Shown here in pieces: positions 5,372-12,011 of a stretch of DNA of 37,031 bases (the stretch's first letter is position 1; each line of letters begins with the position of its first letter). The translations under genes were made by a program, and so were the position numbers. The stretch is taken from assembly GCA_040225955.1 (NCBI GenBank), contig JBECUL010000018.1, positions 1-37,031 on the forward strand. Reading direction: 5' to 3'. The DNA comes from Candidatus Asgardarchaeum abyssi. Its GTDB lineage: Archaea; Asgardarchaeota; Asgardarchaeia; Asgardarchaeales; Asgardarchaeaceae. The notes under the pieces were generated by a model. It had not been told where the DNA came from. It saw only the letters and a list, made by a program, of their open reading frames with translations, and ran no database searches.

Positions 5372-5756
5372 TGCCTCCGCATTATCTAAATATGTATTAA
5401 AAGAACCGGGCTGGAGCTCTATTGAGAAATATCTTTATGAGGCATATAGTTTGGATTTTGCGCTTATTGAAAGTGCAAATGCTATTTGGAAAGCGTATTA
5501 CATGAATCTTATATCAGAAAAAGATGCTATAAAAAAGCTTGAAGCTTTGAAAATTATATTCTCTAAAGTTTTAACAGTGATTGATTCTAGCAAATTTATT
5601 GGTGACGCCTTTTCATTTGCTATAGAAAATAGAACTCCTATATATGACATGTTATATATAGCTTTGGCAAAACAACAAAACTTACCATTGCTAACTTCAG
5701 ATAATAAACAAGCAAGGATAGCAAGAAAATATGATATAGAAGTGATTGAAGTGTAG
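5358..5756 (+). CDS. vapC: VapC PIN-domain toxin
   Basis: MIVIDASAL...E.ANAIWK...IYDMLYIALA....PLLTSD PIN motifs. Confidence 0.9.
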   Translation: MIVIDASALSKYVLKEPGWSSIEKYLYEAYSLDFALIESANAIWKAYYMNLISEKDAIKKLEALKIIFSKVLTVIDSSKFIGDAFSFAIENRTPIYDMLYIALAKQQNLPLLTSDNKQARIARKYDIEVIEV

Positions 5757-5890
5757 TATATTATGGATTTACTTATCTATTTAATTTTCTTAGCTTTTTA
5801 ATAACAATATAATATATGTTGATTCAAAACGGAAGATTAAAATGTCAGAGATAGGTCAAAAAATTAAATAAGCTCATAAGAAGTGATTTT

Positions 5891-6757
5891 ATGAGTAAAC
5901 ATCCACTTATGACACTATTAAAGCTTTCAATAGTATCGTACTTCATTTCTTCATTCATTAAAGTGTATGGTGGTTTAGTTTCGGGAAGTCTTGCATTAGT
6001 TGCTGATGGTTTGGATTCTCTGATAAATGTCTTGTCTTCTAGCTTTGCTTATTTCTCATATATTTTATCTTACAAACCTCCAGATGAGGACCATCCCTAC
6101 GGCCACCAAGGTTATGAAGTGCTTTCCGTTATTGTTACAAATTTTGTGATGATATCTATGGGTTCTATTGTCTTTATTCTATCCTTTCTGAGAATAAATA
6201 TCGAATATAGTGTTGGTGAAATTGGTATATACTTTGCTCTTATTTCGACTATAATTATTATAGCTGCTATGATATCTATGTACTTATTATCTAAAAAGAC
6301 ACAGAGTGTATCGTTAAAGGCTGAGTTTAGACATCTTGCAGTGGATTCTTTAGAGTCACTACTTGTTTTAGGTAGTGTTTCCCTAGCAATATACTATAGT
6401 TATATTTTTGATATTTTTGCCGCTCTATTAATAGGCATATTAATGTTCGTTGGTGCAGTTAAAAACACAACAGAGATTTATGAGAGCATCGTATATAAGA
6501 TACCTAGCAAAGAACTCATAGATAGGATAAAGAATATTGTTGAAAGCCATAAGGAAGTTAGGGAGTGTCATAAAATTCGTATTAGGTGTTTGGGGAGGTA
6601 TATATTTGTTGATATGCACGTTCTTGTAGACAAGACTACTCCTATTTCCATCGCTCATGCACTTGCAGATCATTTGGAAAAGGAGATAAAAGAGAAAATA
6701 AAAAATGTTACTGATGTAGTAATACATCTTGAACCATTTAATGACAAAAGTGGGTAA
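5891..6757 (+). CDS. Cation diffusion facilitator (FieF-like) transporter
   Basis: GSLALVADGLDS, KPPDEDHPYGH, hydrophobic helices, C-terminal dimerisation domain ending DVVIHLEP. Confidence 0.92.
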   Translation: MSKHPLMTLLKLSIVSYFISSFIKVYGGLVSGSLALVADGLDSLINVLSSSFAYFSYILSYKPPDEDHPYGHQGYEVLSVIVTNFVMISMGSIVFILSFLRINIEYSVGEIGIYFALISTIIIIAAMISMYLLSKKTQSVSLKAEFRHLAVDSLESLLVLGSVSLAIYYSYIFDIFAALLIGILMFVGAVKNTTEIYESIVYKIPSKELIDRIKNIVESHKEVRECHKIRIRCLGRYIFVDMHVLVDKTTPISIAHALADHLEKEIKEKIKNVTDVVIHLEPFNDKSG

Positions 6758-6862
6758 TTACACATTAATATAGGATTTTCTTGCTTATTTATAGACATTT
6801 TTAATTTTAGATAACCTTATATAACCTAACAGAACTTTATAGTATTAATAAGGTTCTATGAG

Positions 6863-7198
6863 GTGATCATTTTGTCCGAGTATTTACCGCTAAGAATTCC
6901 TGAAGAGGATTCAAAGTATCTTGAAGAGAGGTCAAAGAGAGAAAAAATTCCAAAGGCTGTTCTGGCAAGAAAACTGTTGCACGAAAAGATATTGGAAGAA
7001 AGGTTTAGTGAAGCAGTGCAGAAATACTTAAAGGGCGAGATTTCTCTTGGAAAAGCTGCTGAAAATGCTGGCCTGTCAATTAGAGAGCTCATTGCCCGTT
7101 TAGCTTCTCTTGGTATCGTAATTCGCTACTCTAAGGATTTATTAGAGGCTGATTTAGAGGCTGCAAGAAAATGGGTAGAGAAAATAAAAGAAAAATGA
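6863..7198 (+). CDS. UPF0175-family putative antitoxin
   Basis: YLKGEISLGKAAENAGLS HTH motif with an N-terminal RHH-like segment; ATGA overlap with the next gene. Confidence 0.85.
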   Translation: MIILSEYLPLRIPEEDSKYLEERSKREKIPKAVLARKLLHEKILEERFSEAVQKYLKGEISLGKAAENAGLSIRELIARLASLGIVIRYSKDLLEADLEAARKWVEKIKEK

Positions 7199-7704
7199 TT
7201 TTTAATGCAACCCCTTTAATATATTTAGGAAAAACGAGCGTCCTAAAGAAAATTATAGATGTATTTAATGAAATTTATATAACTGAAGCTGTGTATGATG
7301 AAGTTGTTAGAAAAGGAAAACAAATAGGAGCTGAGGAGGCGCATATTATAGAGGAATATATTAAGCGAGGAATAATTAAAGTTATTAAAGACTCTCCTGC
7401 AACTATTAATTTTTCAGAAACATATCAATTGGGAAAAGGAGAAAGTTCTACCATATTGGTTGCAATAGAAAAAAACTATATTGCCATTATAGATGATGAA
7501 AGAGCTAGAAAGATAGGAGAAAAGTTCAACATAGAAATCCATGGTACATTATTTCTTTTAAAACTTCTATTTCTCCTCAAAAAGTTGAGCAGAGCGGAAG
7601 TAGAAGATGTAATTAGGGATATGGTAAATAAGGGGTTTAGATTGAGTACTGCTGTCATTTTAATGTTTTTAAACGATATAAAACTCGAAGAAAAAATGCA
7701 ATAA
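7195..7704 (+). CDS. DUF3368-family PIN-domain protein
   Basis: MIFNATPLIYL, LGKGESSTI, IIDDERARK, HGTLFLL, GFRLS; start placed at ATG 7195, overlapping the upstream stop. Confidence 0.85.
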   Translation: MIFNATPLIYLGKTSVLKKIIDVFNEIYITEAVYDEVVRKGKQIGAEEAHIIEEYIKRGIIKVIKDSPATINFSETYQLGKGESSTILVAIEKNYIAIIDDERARKIGEKFNIEIHGTLFLLKLLFLLKKLSRAEVEDVIRDMVNKGFRLSTAVILMFLNDIKLEEKMQ

Positions 7705-7836
7705 TTACTTAACAGGTATCATCATTTAATCTTATCTAACTCATTTTACGCATTTTTAAAATAGTAAAATATAGGAATAAGCAATAAAAGTGATGAATAA
7801 TTAATATCTTTTAGTTTTATTAAAAGTGGAGATGGT

Positions 7837-8895
7837 TTGATGGGTGATCATAAGATAAAATTCAGCATAGGATTTGATTTATACTCCAAGAATACAACAC
7901 CAGACATGCTTATAAAATATGCAGCTTTAGCTGATAAGTATGATTTTGATGTTTTTTGGCTTGGGCAAGAGAATTTATACCGAGATATTTTCCAACTTCT
8001 TGCTCTCATAGCAAGATCCACAAAGAATATCTGTATTGGGCCATCGGTCGTTAATCCCTATACAACACATCCAGCTTTGCTTGTTGCATCAGTTGCAACA
8101 TTAGATGAAATCTCAAATGGTCGTGCCTATTTTGGGCTCGGTGCTGGAGGCTCTGCCATTTTAAAGCCATTATCCATTAAGATGTGGGAAAAACCTATAG
8201 CTAGACTAAGAGAAACTATATTGATTGCCAGAAAACTGCTGAGGGGAGAAACAGTAACATTTGATGGAAGGATTCTCAAATTGAATCGTGCCAAGCTCGA
8301 ATTCCCACCAAAACGAGAGATCCCTATTTATCTGGCTGCTAGAGGACCCAAAATGTTAGCGCTTGCAGGAGAACTTGCAGATGGAGTAAACTTGGGTGCT
8401 GTTCCAGCTGGATATATAGATCACGCCAAAACTTTCATTAAAGAAGGCCTTAACAAGGCGGGGCGTGATTTTGAGTCTATTGATATACTGAATCCTCTTA
8501 TGTTATCCTTATCCGAGGACTACAATGAGGCTTATGAGCATCTTATTACTGGTGATCCAGTAATAAAGTATAACACAGTAGTACTTATTGCAGATTCAAA
8601 TAGTTTAGTACTGGAAAAAGCGGGACTTCCACCAGATCTAAATCAGAAGATAAATAGAATACTAATTGAAGAAGGTGTTGATGCAGCAATTAAAGCAATA
8701 CCCGAGAAGGCTATAAATTCGTTCTCAATAGTCGGAGATATCGAGACGTGCATTAAAAGAATAGAGGAATACTTAAAAGTTGGTGTTACACATATTGGAT
8801 TTTTCCAACCTCATGGTCCAGATATTGAGAAGGCTATAAAACTTCTCGGTGAAAAAATAATACCATATATCAAAGAACAATATTCTTATTCTTAA
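7837..8895 (+). CDS. LLM-class flavin/F420-dependent oxidoreductase (Mer-like)
   Basis: IGPSVVNPYTTHPA, TLDEISNGRAYFGLGAG, IPIYLAARGPKMLALAGELADG. Confidence 0.88.
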   Translation: MMGDHKIKFSIGFDLYSKNTTPDMLIKYAALADKYDFDVFWLGQENLYRDIFQLLALIARSTKNICIGPSVVNPYTTHPALLVASVATLDEISNGRAYFGLGAGGSAILKPLSIKMWEKPIARLRETILIARKLLRGETVTFDGRILKLNRAKLEFPPKREIPIYLAARGPKMLALAGELADGVNLGAVPAGYIDHAKTFIKEGLNKAGRDFESIDILNPLMLSLSEDYNEAYEHLITGDPVIKYNTVVLIADSNSLVLEKAGLPPDLNQKINRILIEEGVDAAIKAIPEKAINSFSIVGDIETCIKRIEEYLKVGVTHIGFFQPHGPDIEKAIKLLGEKIIPYIKEQYSYS

Positions 8896-9003
8896 TATCT
8901 TAGATAACTCAGGACTCTCTCAAAAAAGAATAATAAAGAATTATGATAAAGTAAGGAATTATTTTTTGATTAAAAAAATATAAGTTATAGTCTTAAGTCT
9001 GAA

Positions 9004-9030
9004 ATGAAAAACTTATAAACTGCCGCTCCT
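9004..9030. repeat. Left sub-terminal inverted repeat of the IS110 element (partner 10492-10511)
   Basis: ATGAAAAACTT (9004-9014) and TGCCGCTCCT (9021-9030) are reverse complements of 10501-10511 (11/11) and 10492-10501 (9/10). Confidence 0.85.
9006..9019 (+). promoter_or_regulatory. BRE/TATA promoter for the IS110 ncRNA/transposase
   Basis: GAAAAAC-TTATAAA ending about 23 nt upstream of the first paired base (9042) of the structured RNA, typical archaeal spacing. Confidence 0.6.
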
Positions 9031-9041
9031 TTTTATCGAAT

Positions 9042-9197
9042 ATTGGGAGCCTAGGGGCCGCCGGTTTTTATTTTGGGGCTTCGACCCCGTCATAAGTCTG
9101 GCGGGCACGCCTCAAATGGGTGTTCAGTATGGGGCATTGACCCCGTATAGAAGCCCATTGATACGAGGTCGTGCCATTCGCCCCGACAGCTCCCAAT
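9042..9197 (+). ncRNA. Putative bridge RNA of the IS110 element
   Basis: Closing stem ATTGGGAGC 9042-9050 / GCTCCCAAT 9189-9197; two arms each capped by TGGGGC-NNN-GACCCCGT (9074-9090, 9130-9146); internal-loop segments match the element flanks and ends. Confidence 0.8.
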
Positions 9198-9226
9198 TAA
9201 ATAAAATATGAATGAGGTGATAGAAT

Positions 9227-10513
9227 ATGAATGAATTGACTCATTCAAATTATATTTGTGGAATCGATCCACATAAAAAAAGATTTACTTCAGTTATTTT
9301 AAATTTTGCTAACGAATCAATAATCAGTGTAAGAACATTTAGTAACGACCGCTACGGGTATAATGAGCTTGCAGAGTGGCTTTCGGAGAATATGTGTAGT
9401 GAAGTTGTTATCGAAACATCTAATAACTTCTGGTACGCCATCTACGACTGGCTCAAAAAACACGGATTCTTAGTTCACGCAGTTAGTCCATCTCAAGTTC
9501 CAAGAAAGAGGAAGAAGAGCGATAAACACGACGCAGCGTGGATTGCATTGATGTATGCGAAGAAGCTTGTTGAAGAATCTTATGTACCAGATGAAAGCAT
9601 TCGAAAGTTAAGGAACTTGATTAGGGTTCGGAGAAAGTTGGTAGAGGAGAGCACAAGTCACAAGAACAGGGTACAATCGCTTTTATCTGCGGCACGTCTT
9701 GATCTGAAGTGTGTTTTCTCAGATGTCTTTGGAGTTTCCGGAACGAAAGTGCTGAAATCGCTCATCGTAGGTGGTGTGGATGATGCGATAAGGGTTGCAC
9801 CTGCAAAGAAGAGGGGAATGCTCAGAGAGGTTCTTGACAGAGCGTACTTGGCGAACTTAGATAATGATCTAGTTCTTGTTCTATTGACGGAGATAGAGCG
9901 GATTAACGAGGCGATAAGGCGCATAGAAATGATGATAGCTAGAGTTATAGATAGTGATGAGAGGATTAAGAAACAAGTGGAGATACTTATATCGATACCT
10001 GGAGTTGATATGATAACGGCAACGACTGTTATTGCGGAGATTGGCGATTTTAGGAGATTTATTGATGGAAAGCAGATAGCAAGCTATTCTGGGCTAGTTC
10101 CACGCATAAATGAGTCGAATGGTAAGCAGTGGGGTCATGGGATAACGAAGCGAGGGAGTCCCTATCTGAGGCATGTGTTGACGGAGGCTGCTGGATCGAT
10201 AGTGAGGACAAAAGCTTCAAAGAGCTTGTATTTGTTCTATTACAATATTATGAAGAGGAGAGGGCACAAGGTAGCGTTAGTAGCGTTAGCACGAAAGCTT
10301 TTGGTAGTGATGCATGCGTTGGTGTTGAGGGGGGAGCACTATCGGGATATTAGTAGGGGTCAGTTAATTACGAGGAAGCTGAGGCGGATAGAGGCGTATG
10401 CGAGGAGATATGAGAAGATGATAAAAGTTGAGTTAAGCGAGCTGAGGCGGATATTAGAAATATTTAAAAGTGACGGAGTAGAAGATGAAGTAGGGGCGGC
10501 AAGTTTTTCATAG
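9227..10513 (+). CDS. IS110-family transposase/recombinase (DEDD RuvC-like plus Tnp20 domain)
   Basis: CGIDPHK (D), VIETS (E), KSDKHDA (DxxD), SIPGVD...EIGDFRRF, YSGLVPRINESNG (catalytic Ser region), KRGSPYLR, VALARKL; GAGGTGA RBS at 9214-9220. Confidence 0.95.
   Translation: MNELTHSNYICGIDPHKKRFTSVILNFANESIISVRTFSNDRYGYNELAEWLSENMCSEVVIETSNNFWYAIYDWLKKHGFLVHAVSPSQVPRKRKKSDKHDAAWIALMYAKKLVEESYVPDESIRKLRNLIRVRRKLVEESTSHKNRVQSLLSAARLDLKCVFSDVFGVSGTKVLKSLIVGGVDDAIRVAPAKKRGMLREVLDRAYLANLDNDLVLVLLTEIERINEAIRRIEMMIARVIDSDERIKKQVEILISIPGVDMITATTVIAEIGDFRRFIDGKQIASYSGLVPRINESNGKQWGHGITKRGSPYLRHVLTEAAGSIVRTKASKSLYLFYYNIMKRRGHKVALVALARKLLVVMHALVLRGEHYRDISRGQLITRKLRRIEAYARRYEKMIKVELSELRRILEIFKSDGVEDEVGAASFS
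10492..10511. repeat. Right sub-terminal inverted repeat of the IS110 element
   Basis: AGGGGCGGCAAGTTTTTCAT, inside the last codons of the transposase. Confidence 0.85.
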
Positions 10514-10607
10514 AAAATATAAAAAATATTTCATGTATTTTACATCAATTATTTATATTTTTATTATTAGGATTGAATAGGCATCGCATGATTTATGGTG
10601 TATTGAC

Positions 10608-12011
10608 ATGCCCGAAAATGTAGATATTATTATAAAGAACTCAATTATAGCAACAATGGATCCTCAAGAGAGATTATTTGAAGATGGAATGGTTGCAATC
10701 AAAGATGGAATCATCGTAGATGTTGACAAAACTAGTCGCATAGAGGATAAATACACAGCAGATAAAGTCATCGACGGTAAAGGAAAAATAATACTCCCAG
10801 GGTTCATTAATACGCATGACCATCTCTTTCAAGTGTTAATGAAAAGTCTTGGTGACGATTTAGCTATTTTAGATTGGTGGCCTACTGCTGTTGGGCCATA
10901 TGTACAATATTTAGAAAAGGAGCATTCATACTATTCAGCTCTTTTAGGCAGTGTTGAGCTTATTAAAAGTGGTGTTACAACAATTTTAGACTTTCAATAT
11001 GCAAATCCAAATCCAGGAACGGATGTTGCTGTCCTTGAAGCTTGGAAAAAACTAGGAGTCAGAGGGATTCTAGGAAGAGGTTATAGTGATTATGATATGT
11101 GGAATTTAAATTTAGGAAGGCTTATTGAACCTCCAGAGAAAATATTTAGCGAAGTTGAGAACTTAATTAGAAACTGGCACAAAAAGGAAAACGGCAGATT
11201 AAATGTTTGGGTTGCCCCAGGAGCGCCGTTTACTATCTCTGATGAAACAGCTATGAAGACAAGAGAATTTGCTGATAAATATAAAATCGGAATCACTATA
11301 CATCTTCATGAATCAAAGCGTGAGGTAGAGCAGTGGAAGCAACAGTTCGGCACATCCCCACTCCAATACTATTATGAAAAACTCCCCGAGTTTCTCGGTC
11401 CAGACATGTTAGGTGTACATTGCGTCTGGATGGATGAAAAAGATATTAAAATCATGAAGGAAAAGGACATTAAGGTTTCACATAATACAATTAGCAATAT
11501 GTACTTGGCCTCTGGAGTTGCCCCTGTGCCAGAATTTCTAAAGAATGGAATTGTGGTAAGCTTGGGTGTTGATGGTGCCGCTTCAAATAACAGCCAAGAT
11601 TTCATGGAGCTTATAAAAGCTACAGCATTATTGCATAAAGTTGCTAGGGTTGATCCTCAGGCCATCACCGCAAAACAAGTTCTCAGAATGGCTACCATTG
11701 ATGGTGCTAGAGCCGTTTTAATGGAGAACGAAATAGGTTCTATTGAAAAAGGTAAGAAAGCGGATATCATAATCTTCGATTTAAACAATATTCAAATGAG
11801 ACCTGTTAATAATCCACTATCACAGGTCGTTTACTGTGGTAAGAGCTGGAACGTGGAAACAGTAATCGTGGATGGAAACATAATAATGGAAAATCGTGTA
11901 GTAAAAGGCGTTGACGAACAAGAACTCATTTGGAAAGTCCAAGAACTTGCAGATGATCTAGTAGAAAAAGCTGGGAAAACAGAATTGAGAAAACAGTTAT
12001 GGTATAGGTAA
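10608..12011 (+). CDS. Amidohydrolase, MTA/SAH (nucleoside/purine) deaminase family
   Basis: PGFINTHDH, IHLHES, GVHCV, SNMYLASG, LGVDGAASNN, GSIEKGKKAD. Confidence 0.9.
   Translation: MPENVDIIIKNSIIATMDPQERLFEDGMVAIKDGIIVDVDKTSRIEDKYTADKVIDGKGKIILPGFINTHDHLFQVLMKSLGDDLAILDWWPTAVGPYVQYLEKEHSYYSALLGSVELIKSGVTTILDFQYANPNPGTDVAVLEAWKKLGVRGILGRGYSDYDMWNLNLGRLIEPPEKIFSEVENLIRNWHKKENGRLNVWVAPGAPFTISDETAMKTREFADKYKIGITIHLHESKREVEQWKQQFGTSPLQYYYEKLPEFLGPDMLGVHCVWMDEKDIKIMKEKDIKVSHNTISNMYLASGVAPVPEFLKNGIVVSLGVDGAASNNSQDFMELIKATALLHKVARVDPQAITAKQVLRMATIDGARAVLMENEIGSIEKGKKADIIIFDLNNIQMRPVNNPLSQVVYCGKSWNVETVIVDGNIIMENRVVKGVDEQELIWKVQELADDLVEKAGKTELRKQLWYR

Follow-up and report, generated by a model that had tools for sequence, protein, structure and literature searches.

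The bridge recombinases described in 2024 came from bacteria (Durrant et al., 2024, PMC11208160; Hiraizumi et al., 2024, PMC11208158). In the bridge RNA of the insertion sequence IS621, the target loop consists of a stem, a left target guide (LTG, nt 50–58), a stem-loop, a right target guide (RTG, nt 77–80) and handshake guides (nt 81–82). LTG has the sense of the top-strand left target and pairs with the bottom strand, RTG pairs with the top strand, and handshake guides sit 3' of both RTG and the right donor guide (RDG); the core of IS621-like elements is CT, of which the second base (T) is almost invariant and the first less so (PMC11208160, PMC11208158). Archaeal IS110 recombinases are known as proteins, 662 in number, and several independent acquisitions have been proposed for them (bioRxiv 10.1101/2024.06.21.599552). 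Here we analyse contig JBECUL010000018.1 of Candidatus Asgardarchaeum abyssi (37,031 nt at its full length, hereafter the window), in which positions 8998–10513 very likely represent a bridge-RNA IS110 insertion sequence of an archaeon, with the probable core AG and with target-loop guides that match its flanks.

The open reading frame (ORF) at 9227–10513 on the forward strand encodes an IS110-family RNA-guided transposase of 428 aa, as an earlier, sequence-only reading of the window had claimed. It contains the Pfam domains PF01548 (residues 11–154, 5.5e-27) and PF02371 (residues 252–330, 3.7e-24), and it matches the NCBIfam model NF033542 'IS110 family RNA-guided transposase' with 264 bits at a cut-off of 140. 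The only relatives in the PDB are the transposases of IS621 and ISCro4 (best 8wt6, E = 1.8e-15; second 9t56, E = 1.5e-13). In a phmmer alignment with IS621 the RuvC-like residues D, E, D and D and the Ser of the Tnp domain are identical (GID, IE, D..D, ES); these catalytic residues were read from the alignment, with hand-checked numbering and a chain offset of 2, and the alignment covers about 290 of the 428 residues at low identity. The host is an archaeon, as had also been claimed, because an archaeal signal recognition particle RNA (193 bits) and an archaeal RNase P RNA (175 bits) are present in the same assembly. The layout of the element, with a long left end of 229 nt (8998–9226) that carries the RNA and a right end with 0 nt of non-coding DNA, is that of the IS110 group; the transposase stop codon TAG (10511–10513) contains the probable core AG. 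The subterminal inverted repeats that had been noticed from the letters are real (9004–9014/10501–10511, 11 nt, 100%), and this perfect repeat of 11 bp departs from the 2–3 bp of the IS110 group and falls within the 7–17 bp range of IS1111. Judged from its sequence, the insertion sequence at 8998–10513 looks active.

The leader upstream of the gene has a G+C content of 56%, against 34% for the assembly, and folds with -84.8 kcal/mol (z = -6.4 against 200 shuffles). The fold has an outer 9-bp stem (9042–9050/9189–9197) and two arms with near-identical apical hairpins, which agrees with what had been described before. An alignment of 11 leaders gives seven helices in which 97.4% of the cells pair, and 17 of the 35 pairs are compensatory with both sides changed. 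A covariance model (R1) scores 178.8 bits at 9042–9197 and has full-length matches directly upstream of 12 further IS110 genes (28–35% protein identity) in other genera of the phylum. Structural covariation, which the sequence-only reading had named as a check, is found in 31 of the 35 pairs when 21 sequences are aligned, with 95.7% of the cells pairing and a covariation score of 0.692 versus 0.07–0.132 for slid partners and 0/500 shuffles, although this alignment was fitted to R1 and therefore somewhat favours the structure. As in bridge RNAs, the conserved RNA has two internal loops under stem-loops. Rfam returned nothing relevant, either in an E-value search on 8700–10800 or with gathering thresholds on the whole window. 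Around the start of the gene, an 18-nt inverted repeat (89%, 9199–9216/9240–9257) flanks the ribosome-binding site GAGGTGAT and the transposase ATG on both sides, and this repeat could occlude translation initiation.

The window is contig C18 of a metagenome-assembled genome (MAG, G000) of 2.6 Mb in 189 contigs. These contigs end about 36 times inside relatives of the element, which account for as many breaks in the assembly. Three kinds occur in this genome: A, to which the window copy belongs (leader variants A1–A3), B1 (8 left ends) and B2 (6 left ends). Between the B transposases and A, protein identity is only some 42%, and both kinds have in common the 11-bp subterminal repeat and the ends TCTGA(A/T)ATG and CATAG. 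Since the MAG assembly breaks 72–73 nt into each B copy, full B elements were taken from public assemblies (B1, L058; B2, L062; B3, L063, L082 and L084), and so were full elements of the A kinds (L018, L020, L060 and L061) and ten loci of a family C, which encode one identical protein. By their loop-1 letters the elements form five sub-families: A, B1, B2, B3 and C. A DNA search of 60 genomes of the same phylum left the element unmatched outside its own genome, and a protein scan of the genome-contig set found no relative. Two aberrant relatives were seen: at L059:187–2764 an A-type transposase (441 aa, 88% identical) lacks the leader RNA, and its start is overlapped by an upstream ORF of 426 aa of no known family, and G000 C4:71500–72296 carries a decayed B-like transposase gene with frameshifts and stops that keeps the right end GAAGTTTTTCATAG.

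From the window copy, four 7-nt strands of the leader had been assigned to four stretches of DNA: the loop-1 5' strand TTTTTAT (9065–9071) to the right flank ATATAAA (10517–10523; 6/7), the loop-1 3' strand CATAAGT (9091–9097) to the left flank CTTAAGT (8992–8998; 6/7), the loop-2 5' strand TGTTCAG (9121–9127) to the left end of the element CTGAAAT (8999–9005; 5/7) and the loop-2 3' strand ATAGAAG (9147–9153) to its right end ATAGAAA (10510–10516; 6/7). All eight strings and all four counts are correct, and we keep the four assignments. The partners were thus right, but the guides are longer than 7 nt, the loop-1 5' strand having 10 nt (Table 1). These matches derive their significance from the related copies; the window copy taken by itself is weak.

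Across the sub-families the target-loop strands covary with both the left and the right targets. The loop-1 3' strand reads CAUAAGU in A, where the left flanks are CTTAAGT, TATAAGT, CTAAAGT, AATAAGT, AAGAAGT and CAAAAGT, and AAAUAGU in B1, where they are AAATAGT (seven times) and ATATAGT (twice). It reads AAAAAGU in B2 (AAAAAGT four times and xAAAAGT three times), AUAAAGU in B3 (ATAAAGT twice and AAAAAGT once) and again AAAAAGU in C (AAAAAGT seven times). Label-permutation tests were done with five guide types on 32 left and 26 right junctions. On the left, flanks matched their own guide at 114 of 128 cells (four informative positions), where the permuted mean was 87.6 and 0 of 100,000 permutations reached 114. 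On the right, the reverse complement of the loop-1 5' strand, aligned to the 10 nt after CATAG, is AAAATAAAAA in A1, AAAAAATAAA in A2 and A3, AAAATAAAAG in B1, AAATAAAAAG in B2, AAAAAGAAAA in B3 and AAATAAAAAA in C; own-guide matches amounted to 161 of 208, with a permuted mean of 142.1 and 1 of 100,000 permutations reaching the observed value. For the right guide, 9 of 10 positions match in the window, and all 10 do in L061, C23, L072, L074, L076 and L080. The base that interrupts the U run of the loop-1 5' strand shifts in step with the first T in the flank.

The same change is seen within one genome. There, T is present at -4 of the left flank in 8/8 B1 copies versus 0/6 B2 copies (Fisher p = 0.0003), and at position 4 after CATAG in 0/7 B1 versus 5/5 B2 copies (Fisher p = 0.0013). 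The B2 flanks were observed before the B2 leader, and the loop-1 strands of that leader, GGCAAAAAGU and CUUUUUAUUU, are as those flanks implied. The guide/target covariation that had been proposed as a check on the earlier note is therefore present, with loops and flanks changing together across five sub-families. Two sets of junctions look different. At the B3 right junctions (L063/L084 and L082/L083) the best right-guide match lies 2 nt further from CATAG than in the other families. At locus L006 (G000 C112:5340) the left-end flank TTTTTATCTTT matches the left-target guide at 1/7 and a T replaces the C of TCTGA; this is not a normal insertion, and its flank read backwards resembles a right target.

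The ends of the element were set by comparing the flanks of external copies with the MAG contigs. At the left end (L017 versus C70), ...GCAAAGAAG|AAATAAAAAATG in the empty allele stands against ...GCAAAGAAG|TCTGAAATG in the occupied one. The part shared with C70 ends ...GAAG, one AG being present in the empty site, and T8998 belongs to the element because the C70 allele has A at that place. At the right end (L023 versus C2), the sequence is ...GCATAAAT|AAGTTTAAAATG where the element is absent and ...CATAG|AAGTTTAAAATG where it is present; since the empty allele resumes directly after CATAG, the element ends at 10513 and the next AA is target. A third occupied/empty pair, L062 versus C33, is compatible with these ends, and copies of the same genome share sequence only between 8998 and 10513. 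The crossover points from the empty alleles are thus 8997|8998 and 10513|10514. AG is found at 32 of 33 left and at all 38 right junctions and is probably the 2-nt core (CT on the other strand). Its presence at both junctions and once in the C70 site is how a core dinucleotide behaves, and it agrees with the site-specific insertion of the IS110 family, in which a short core is shared and the target is not duplicated at length. As judged from these junctions, the target of the window copy is CTTA-AG-AAAATATAAA, and the predicted circle junction is ...TTTTTCAT-AG-TCTGAAATG..., i.e. TTTTTCATAG joined to TCTGAAATG.

The sequence-only reading had placed the ends at 8999 and 10516, with matches abutting at 8998|8999 and 10516|10517, the target CTTAAGT|ATATAAA and the circle junction ATAGAAA|CTGAAAT. 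The search for further copies and empty sites turned out both ways for it: the copies back its guides, but the empty alleles shift the ends to 8998–10513, and target and circle junction are replaced by those given above. Its right end ATAGAAA is actually 4 nt of element followed by 3 nt of target (AAA, 10514–10516). As a rival explanation, such blunt ends, with no shared core, in an otherwise identical bridge-RNA element seem quite unlikely. They would put both 3' loop strands in one register relative to the closing stems (CAUAAGU/CTTAAGT and AUAGAAG/ATAGAAA) and would agree with AGT before CTGA in 32/33 left junctions and with AA after CATAG in 38/38 right junctions. However, T8998 arrives with the element, as C70 has A there, and AA is already in the target in the C2 empty allele. 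Where elements encode an identical protein, the third base after CATAG, at the place of 10516, is A in 22 cases, G in 9 and T in 6. Moreover, a conservative recombinase of the IS110 family needs an overlap between donor and target (PMC11208160, PMC11208158).

Very unlikely, in our view, is a bridge-RNA element whose core lies elsewhere, such as GT (8997–8998) or AA (10514–10515), with heteroduplex repair making the two junctions unequal. Both 3' loop strands end with AAGU in the B and C families, and four right junctions read CATAGAAGT (L023, L073, L078 and L081), as such a core would allow. With GT, however, AT or AA would be expected at about half of the left junctions, where the target has them, and 0/32 show this; 5/5 B2 right junctions read AT after CATAGAA, and the C70 empty site is without GT. 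AA fails for B1, in which the left junctions read TA-GT. Both cores were rejected on these junction statistics. GA is the only other dinucleotide common to the invariant parts of both junctions; it was rejected as core because its targets (...AGTCT-GA-A...) occur 0–1 times in the genome at <=2 mismatches versus about 18 insertions. A further candidate empty site, L022 versus C7, was discarded as it has only 95% identity and differs in the first 4 nt. The empty-site pattern of the window insertion itself gave 0 matches in the metagenome contigs, and a look-up of its two flanking genes gave occupied contigs only.

Hardly credible is the idea that the leader is only a structured 5' untranslated region for the control of translation or stability, that the protein picks the target and that the matches arose by chance in A/T-rich DNA. 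In its favour, the four matches of a single copy are short and rich in A and T, and the inverted repeat 9199–9216/9240–9257 around the ribosome-binding site means that the leader region may also regulate translation. Against it, loop letters and flanks vary together over five sub-families, with the stems kept paired through compensatory changes; the two loop-1 strands of B2 matched the implications of flanks seen earlier; and the protein belongs to a family with shown RNA guidance.

For the bridge-RNA element with an AG core, the donor would be formed by the element ends. All families have the same loop-2 3' strand, AUAGAAG, whose AUAG equals the invariant right end, and CATAG closes 38/38 right ends; the DNA that follows CATAG is AA and then A, G or T. 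The reverse complement of the loop-2 5' strand, ATACTGAACA, has CTGAA in common with AG-TCTGAAAT. It always holds (C/T)GA, and the next base is A where the left end has TGAA (A and C) and T, or C with a G-T wobble, where the left end has TGAT (B1–B3). Such discontinuous pairing of the 5' strand recalls the RDG of IS621, an analogy that is weak by itself. Unconstrained RNAalifold paired the two loop-2 strands with each other; this pairing was rejected, and the strands were treated as a loop, because the pairs break in divergent members (B1 and L061).

Several points speak against the element as we read it. Firstly, the four matches of a single copy are unconvincing, being short and AT-rich and having a freely chosen register. 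There are only five guide types and so few independent trials, and the right-flank matches have a high background because the targets are A-rich: own guides match 6.4–6.9 of 8 versus 4.3–5.9 for guides in which the T is displaced. In addition, 7 of the 26 right junctions fit better when shifted by 1–2 nt, and both B3 sites are shifted by 2. Secondly, the two empty sites come from different insertions, the left and right junctions being taken from separate loci, and each of the contigs L017 and L062 used for the left comparison combines flanks from two loci. At the place of the core the C2 empty site carries AT, with the best left-guide match displaced by 1 nt; on the other strand this would be AT for CT with the T kept, which agrees with the near-invariant second core base of IS621-like elements. 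Thirdly, most of the support for the donor loop comes from conservation: AUAGAAG is the same throughout, one covarying position backs the loop-2 5' strand, and the 3–4 bases of that strand next to the apical hairpin match nothing. Lastly, the case as a whole is built on comparison of sequences.

Family membership, conserved structure, covariation of target loop and flanks, and the two crossover points are established, and from these a mechanism can be proposed. The 229-nt left end would encode the 156-nt bridge RNA, followed by the recombinase gene. About 25 nt before the RNA, every family keeps a TATA-like CTTATAAC (TTATAA), which may be an internal archaeal promoter, from which the RNA would be produced before being bound by the enzyme. 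The RNA would consist of two pseudo-symmetric arms, the target loop and then the donor loop, in which the 5' strand would read the left end (TCTGAA) and the 3' strand the right end (CAT-AG). The bases that immediately follow the core position on its 3' side are, in either arm, the same as those with which the other partner begins, and by analogy with the handshake guides of IS621 they might have the same role. A predicted excised circle (...TTTTTCAT-AG-TCTGAAATG...) would recombine with a target of the type N4-AG-A-rich 10-mer, which would insert the element and leave AG at both junctions.

The likeness to IS621 extends over many features. Both have a DEDD/RuvC-like and Tnp-domain recombinase, an RNA encoded in a long left end before the gene, and a target loop that precedes the donor loop; in both, each internal loop lies under a stem-loop and its strands pair to the top and bottom DNA strands, respectively. 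A 2-nt core is common to donor and target (here probably AG, CT on the other strand), pairing with the left end of the element (putative here) is discontinuous, and the core-reading strand is followed on its 3' side by bases that repeat those of the other partner in a handshake-like manner: the U(C) after AG in loop 1 equals the T(C) of the element, and the AAG after AG in loop 2 equals the AAA/AAG of the right target. Apart from the archaeal host, the main difference lies in the orientation. On the coding strand the 5' loop strands complement the right-hand partners and the 3' strands have left-hand sense, whereas in bridge RNAs of the IS621 type LTG stands 5' and RTG 3' of the stem-loop on that strand. 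Once the DNA is turned round, the archaeal guides coincide with those of IS621, with the core CT, a long guide 5' and a short core-covering guide 3'. The mechanism thus looks isomorphic to that of IS621, but the donor site has the opposite orientation to the RNA and recombinase genes. In contrast to IS621, the 10-nt guide ends before the core, and the RNA lacks a 5' stem-loop; its 156 nt, for which it had been called compact, is the correct length but only modestly short of the 177 nt of IS621. The right end is without non-coding bases, and the likely TATA-type promoter lies wholly in the left end, in contrast to the sigma-70 promoter of IS621, which is rebuilt at the circle junction.

With the IS1111 group the element shares long subterminal inverted repeats (7–17 bp there, 11 bp here) and, in the frame set by the guides, an RNA gene that adjoins the right-hand end (PMC11208160). 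It differs from that group in that the RNA gene is upstream of the recombinase gene on the same strand, whereas the IS1111 bridge/seek RNA lies in the right end, and in that its donor-binding part is a simple internal loop and not a multi-loop. ISCro4/IS622 (PDB 9t56; bioRxiv 10.1101/2025.05.14.653916), likened to it by the protein match, has a two-loop programmable RNA as well, but is bacterial.

Our literature search, which was limited and in which the content of the matches was not examined on this point, turned up nothing devoted to an archaeal bridge RNA. The element is a well-documented archaeal addition to the bridge-RNA/IS110 kind, and its architecture is possibly novel. That the archaeal elements form a distinct branch of bridge recombinases, with an inverted donor site, 11-bp repeats together with an upstream RNA, and an internal promoter, is a tentative suggestion to which we give somewhat less than an even chance. 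If the internal archaeal promoter is real, integrated copies would keep their guide competence. For the relation between the IS110 and IS1111 layouts, the mirrored guide order and the long inverted repeats are relevant, and if no described bacterial orthologue shares this layout, the element would be an intermediate that bears on moves of the RNA gene between the IS110 and IS1111 ends. The five sub-families, with more than 30 mapped insertions and three kinds side by side in one genome, form a natural reprogramming series from which the loop positions that are read and the tolerance for mismatches can be seen without experiment. If the reading is true, they would be a source of small, naturally reprogrammed recombinases for A/T-rich targets. 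Such leaders can now be annotated, since R1 detects the RNA ahead of distant IS110 genes throughout the phylum.

Table 1. Coordinates of the element, its RNA and its target in the window
Feature	Position	Strand	Evidence or remark
Left target CTTA and target-side copy of the probable core AG (8996–8997)	8992–8997	+	Flanks of 32 independent insertions; C70 empty allele
Mobile element, 1516 bp including one core copy (AG 10512–10513)	8998–10513	+	Occupied/empty comparisons L017 versus C70 and L023 versus C2
Left-end donor bases TCTGAA (B families TCTGAT), putative partner of the loop-2 5' strand	8998–9003	+	
Left subterminal inverted repeat ATGAAAAACTT	9004–9014	+	11 nt, 100% complementary to 10501–10511; invariant in A, B and C
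Possible archaeal TATA box TTATAAAC	9013–9020	+	Read from the letters only; about 25 nt upstream of the first stem of the RNA
Bridge RNA gene, 156 nt	9042–9197	+	Outer stem, target-binding arm 9060–9104, donor-binding arm 9105–9176
Loop-1 5' strand, 10 nt, right-target guide	9065–9074	+	9/10 versus 10514–10523
Loop-1 3' strand CAUA-AG-UC	9091–9098	+	Left-target guide, core, then 1–2 bases equal to the element's first bases (handshake-like)
Loop-2 5' strand UGUUCAGUAU, putative guide for the element's left end	9121–9130	+	Discontinuous pairing
Loop-2 3' strand AUAG-AAG	9147–9153	+	Right-end AT, core AG, then AAG equal to the right target's first bases (handshake-like)
Shine-Dalgarno-like GAGGTGAT before ATG 9227	9214–9221	+	Invariant block AGGTGAT in alignment A2
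Transposase gene, 428 aa	9227–10513	+	Pfam, NCBIfam, PDB
Right subterminal inverted repeat AAGTTTTTCAT	10501–10511	+	Repeat search
Right target AAAATATAAA, host DNA	10514–10523	+	C2 empty allele; third base varies among otherwise identical elements

Some observations concern the surroundings of the insertions. L017 (NCBI GCA_054384775.1) joins the left flank of the C70 locus to the right flank of C18 via an identical element, and L062 (ENA ERZ27227320) likewise joins the left flank of the C33 locus to the right flank of C66; these joins are either assembly chimeras or element-mediated rearrangements. Joining flank contigs by interrupted ORFs (C120 x C101 and C68 x C23) was fruitless because the ORFs are separate complete genes, for an HMG-CoA reductase N-terminal domain, an F420 ligase and KaiC, and the insertions are intergenic. 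The empty B2 target at G000 C33:13577–13640 adjoins the apparent 3' end of a tRNA gene on the other strand, and several further insertions lie 15–25 nt upstream of gene starts (e.g. C5). In the window itself, the region upstream of the element (5376–8900, locus L028) contains PIN/RHH and UPF0175/DUF3368 gene pairs, a cation-efflux gene and a luciferase-like monooxygenase gene, and two amidohydrolase genes are found downstream.

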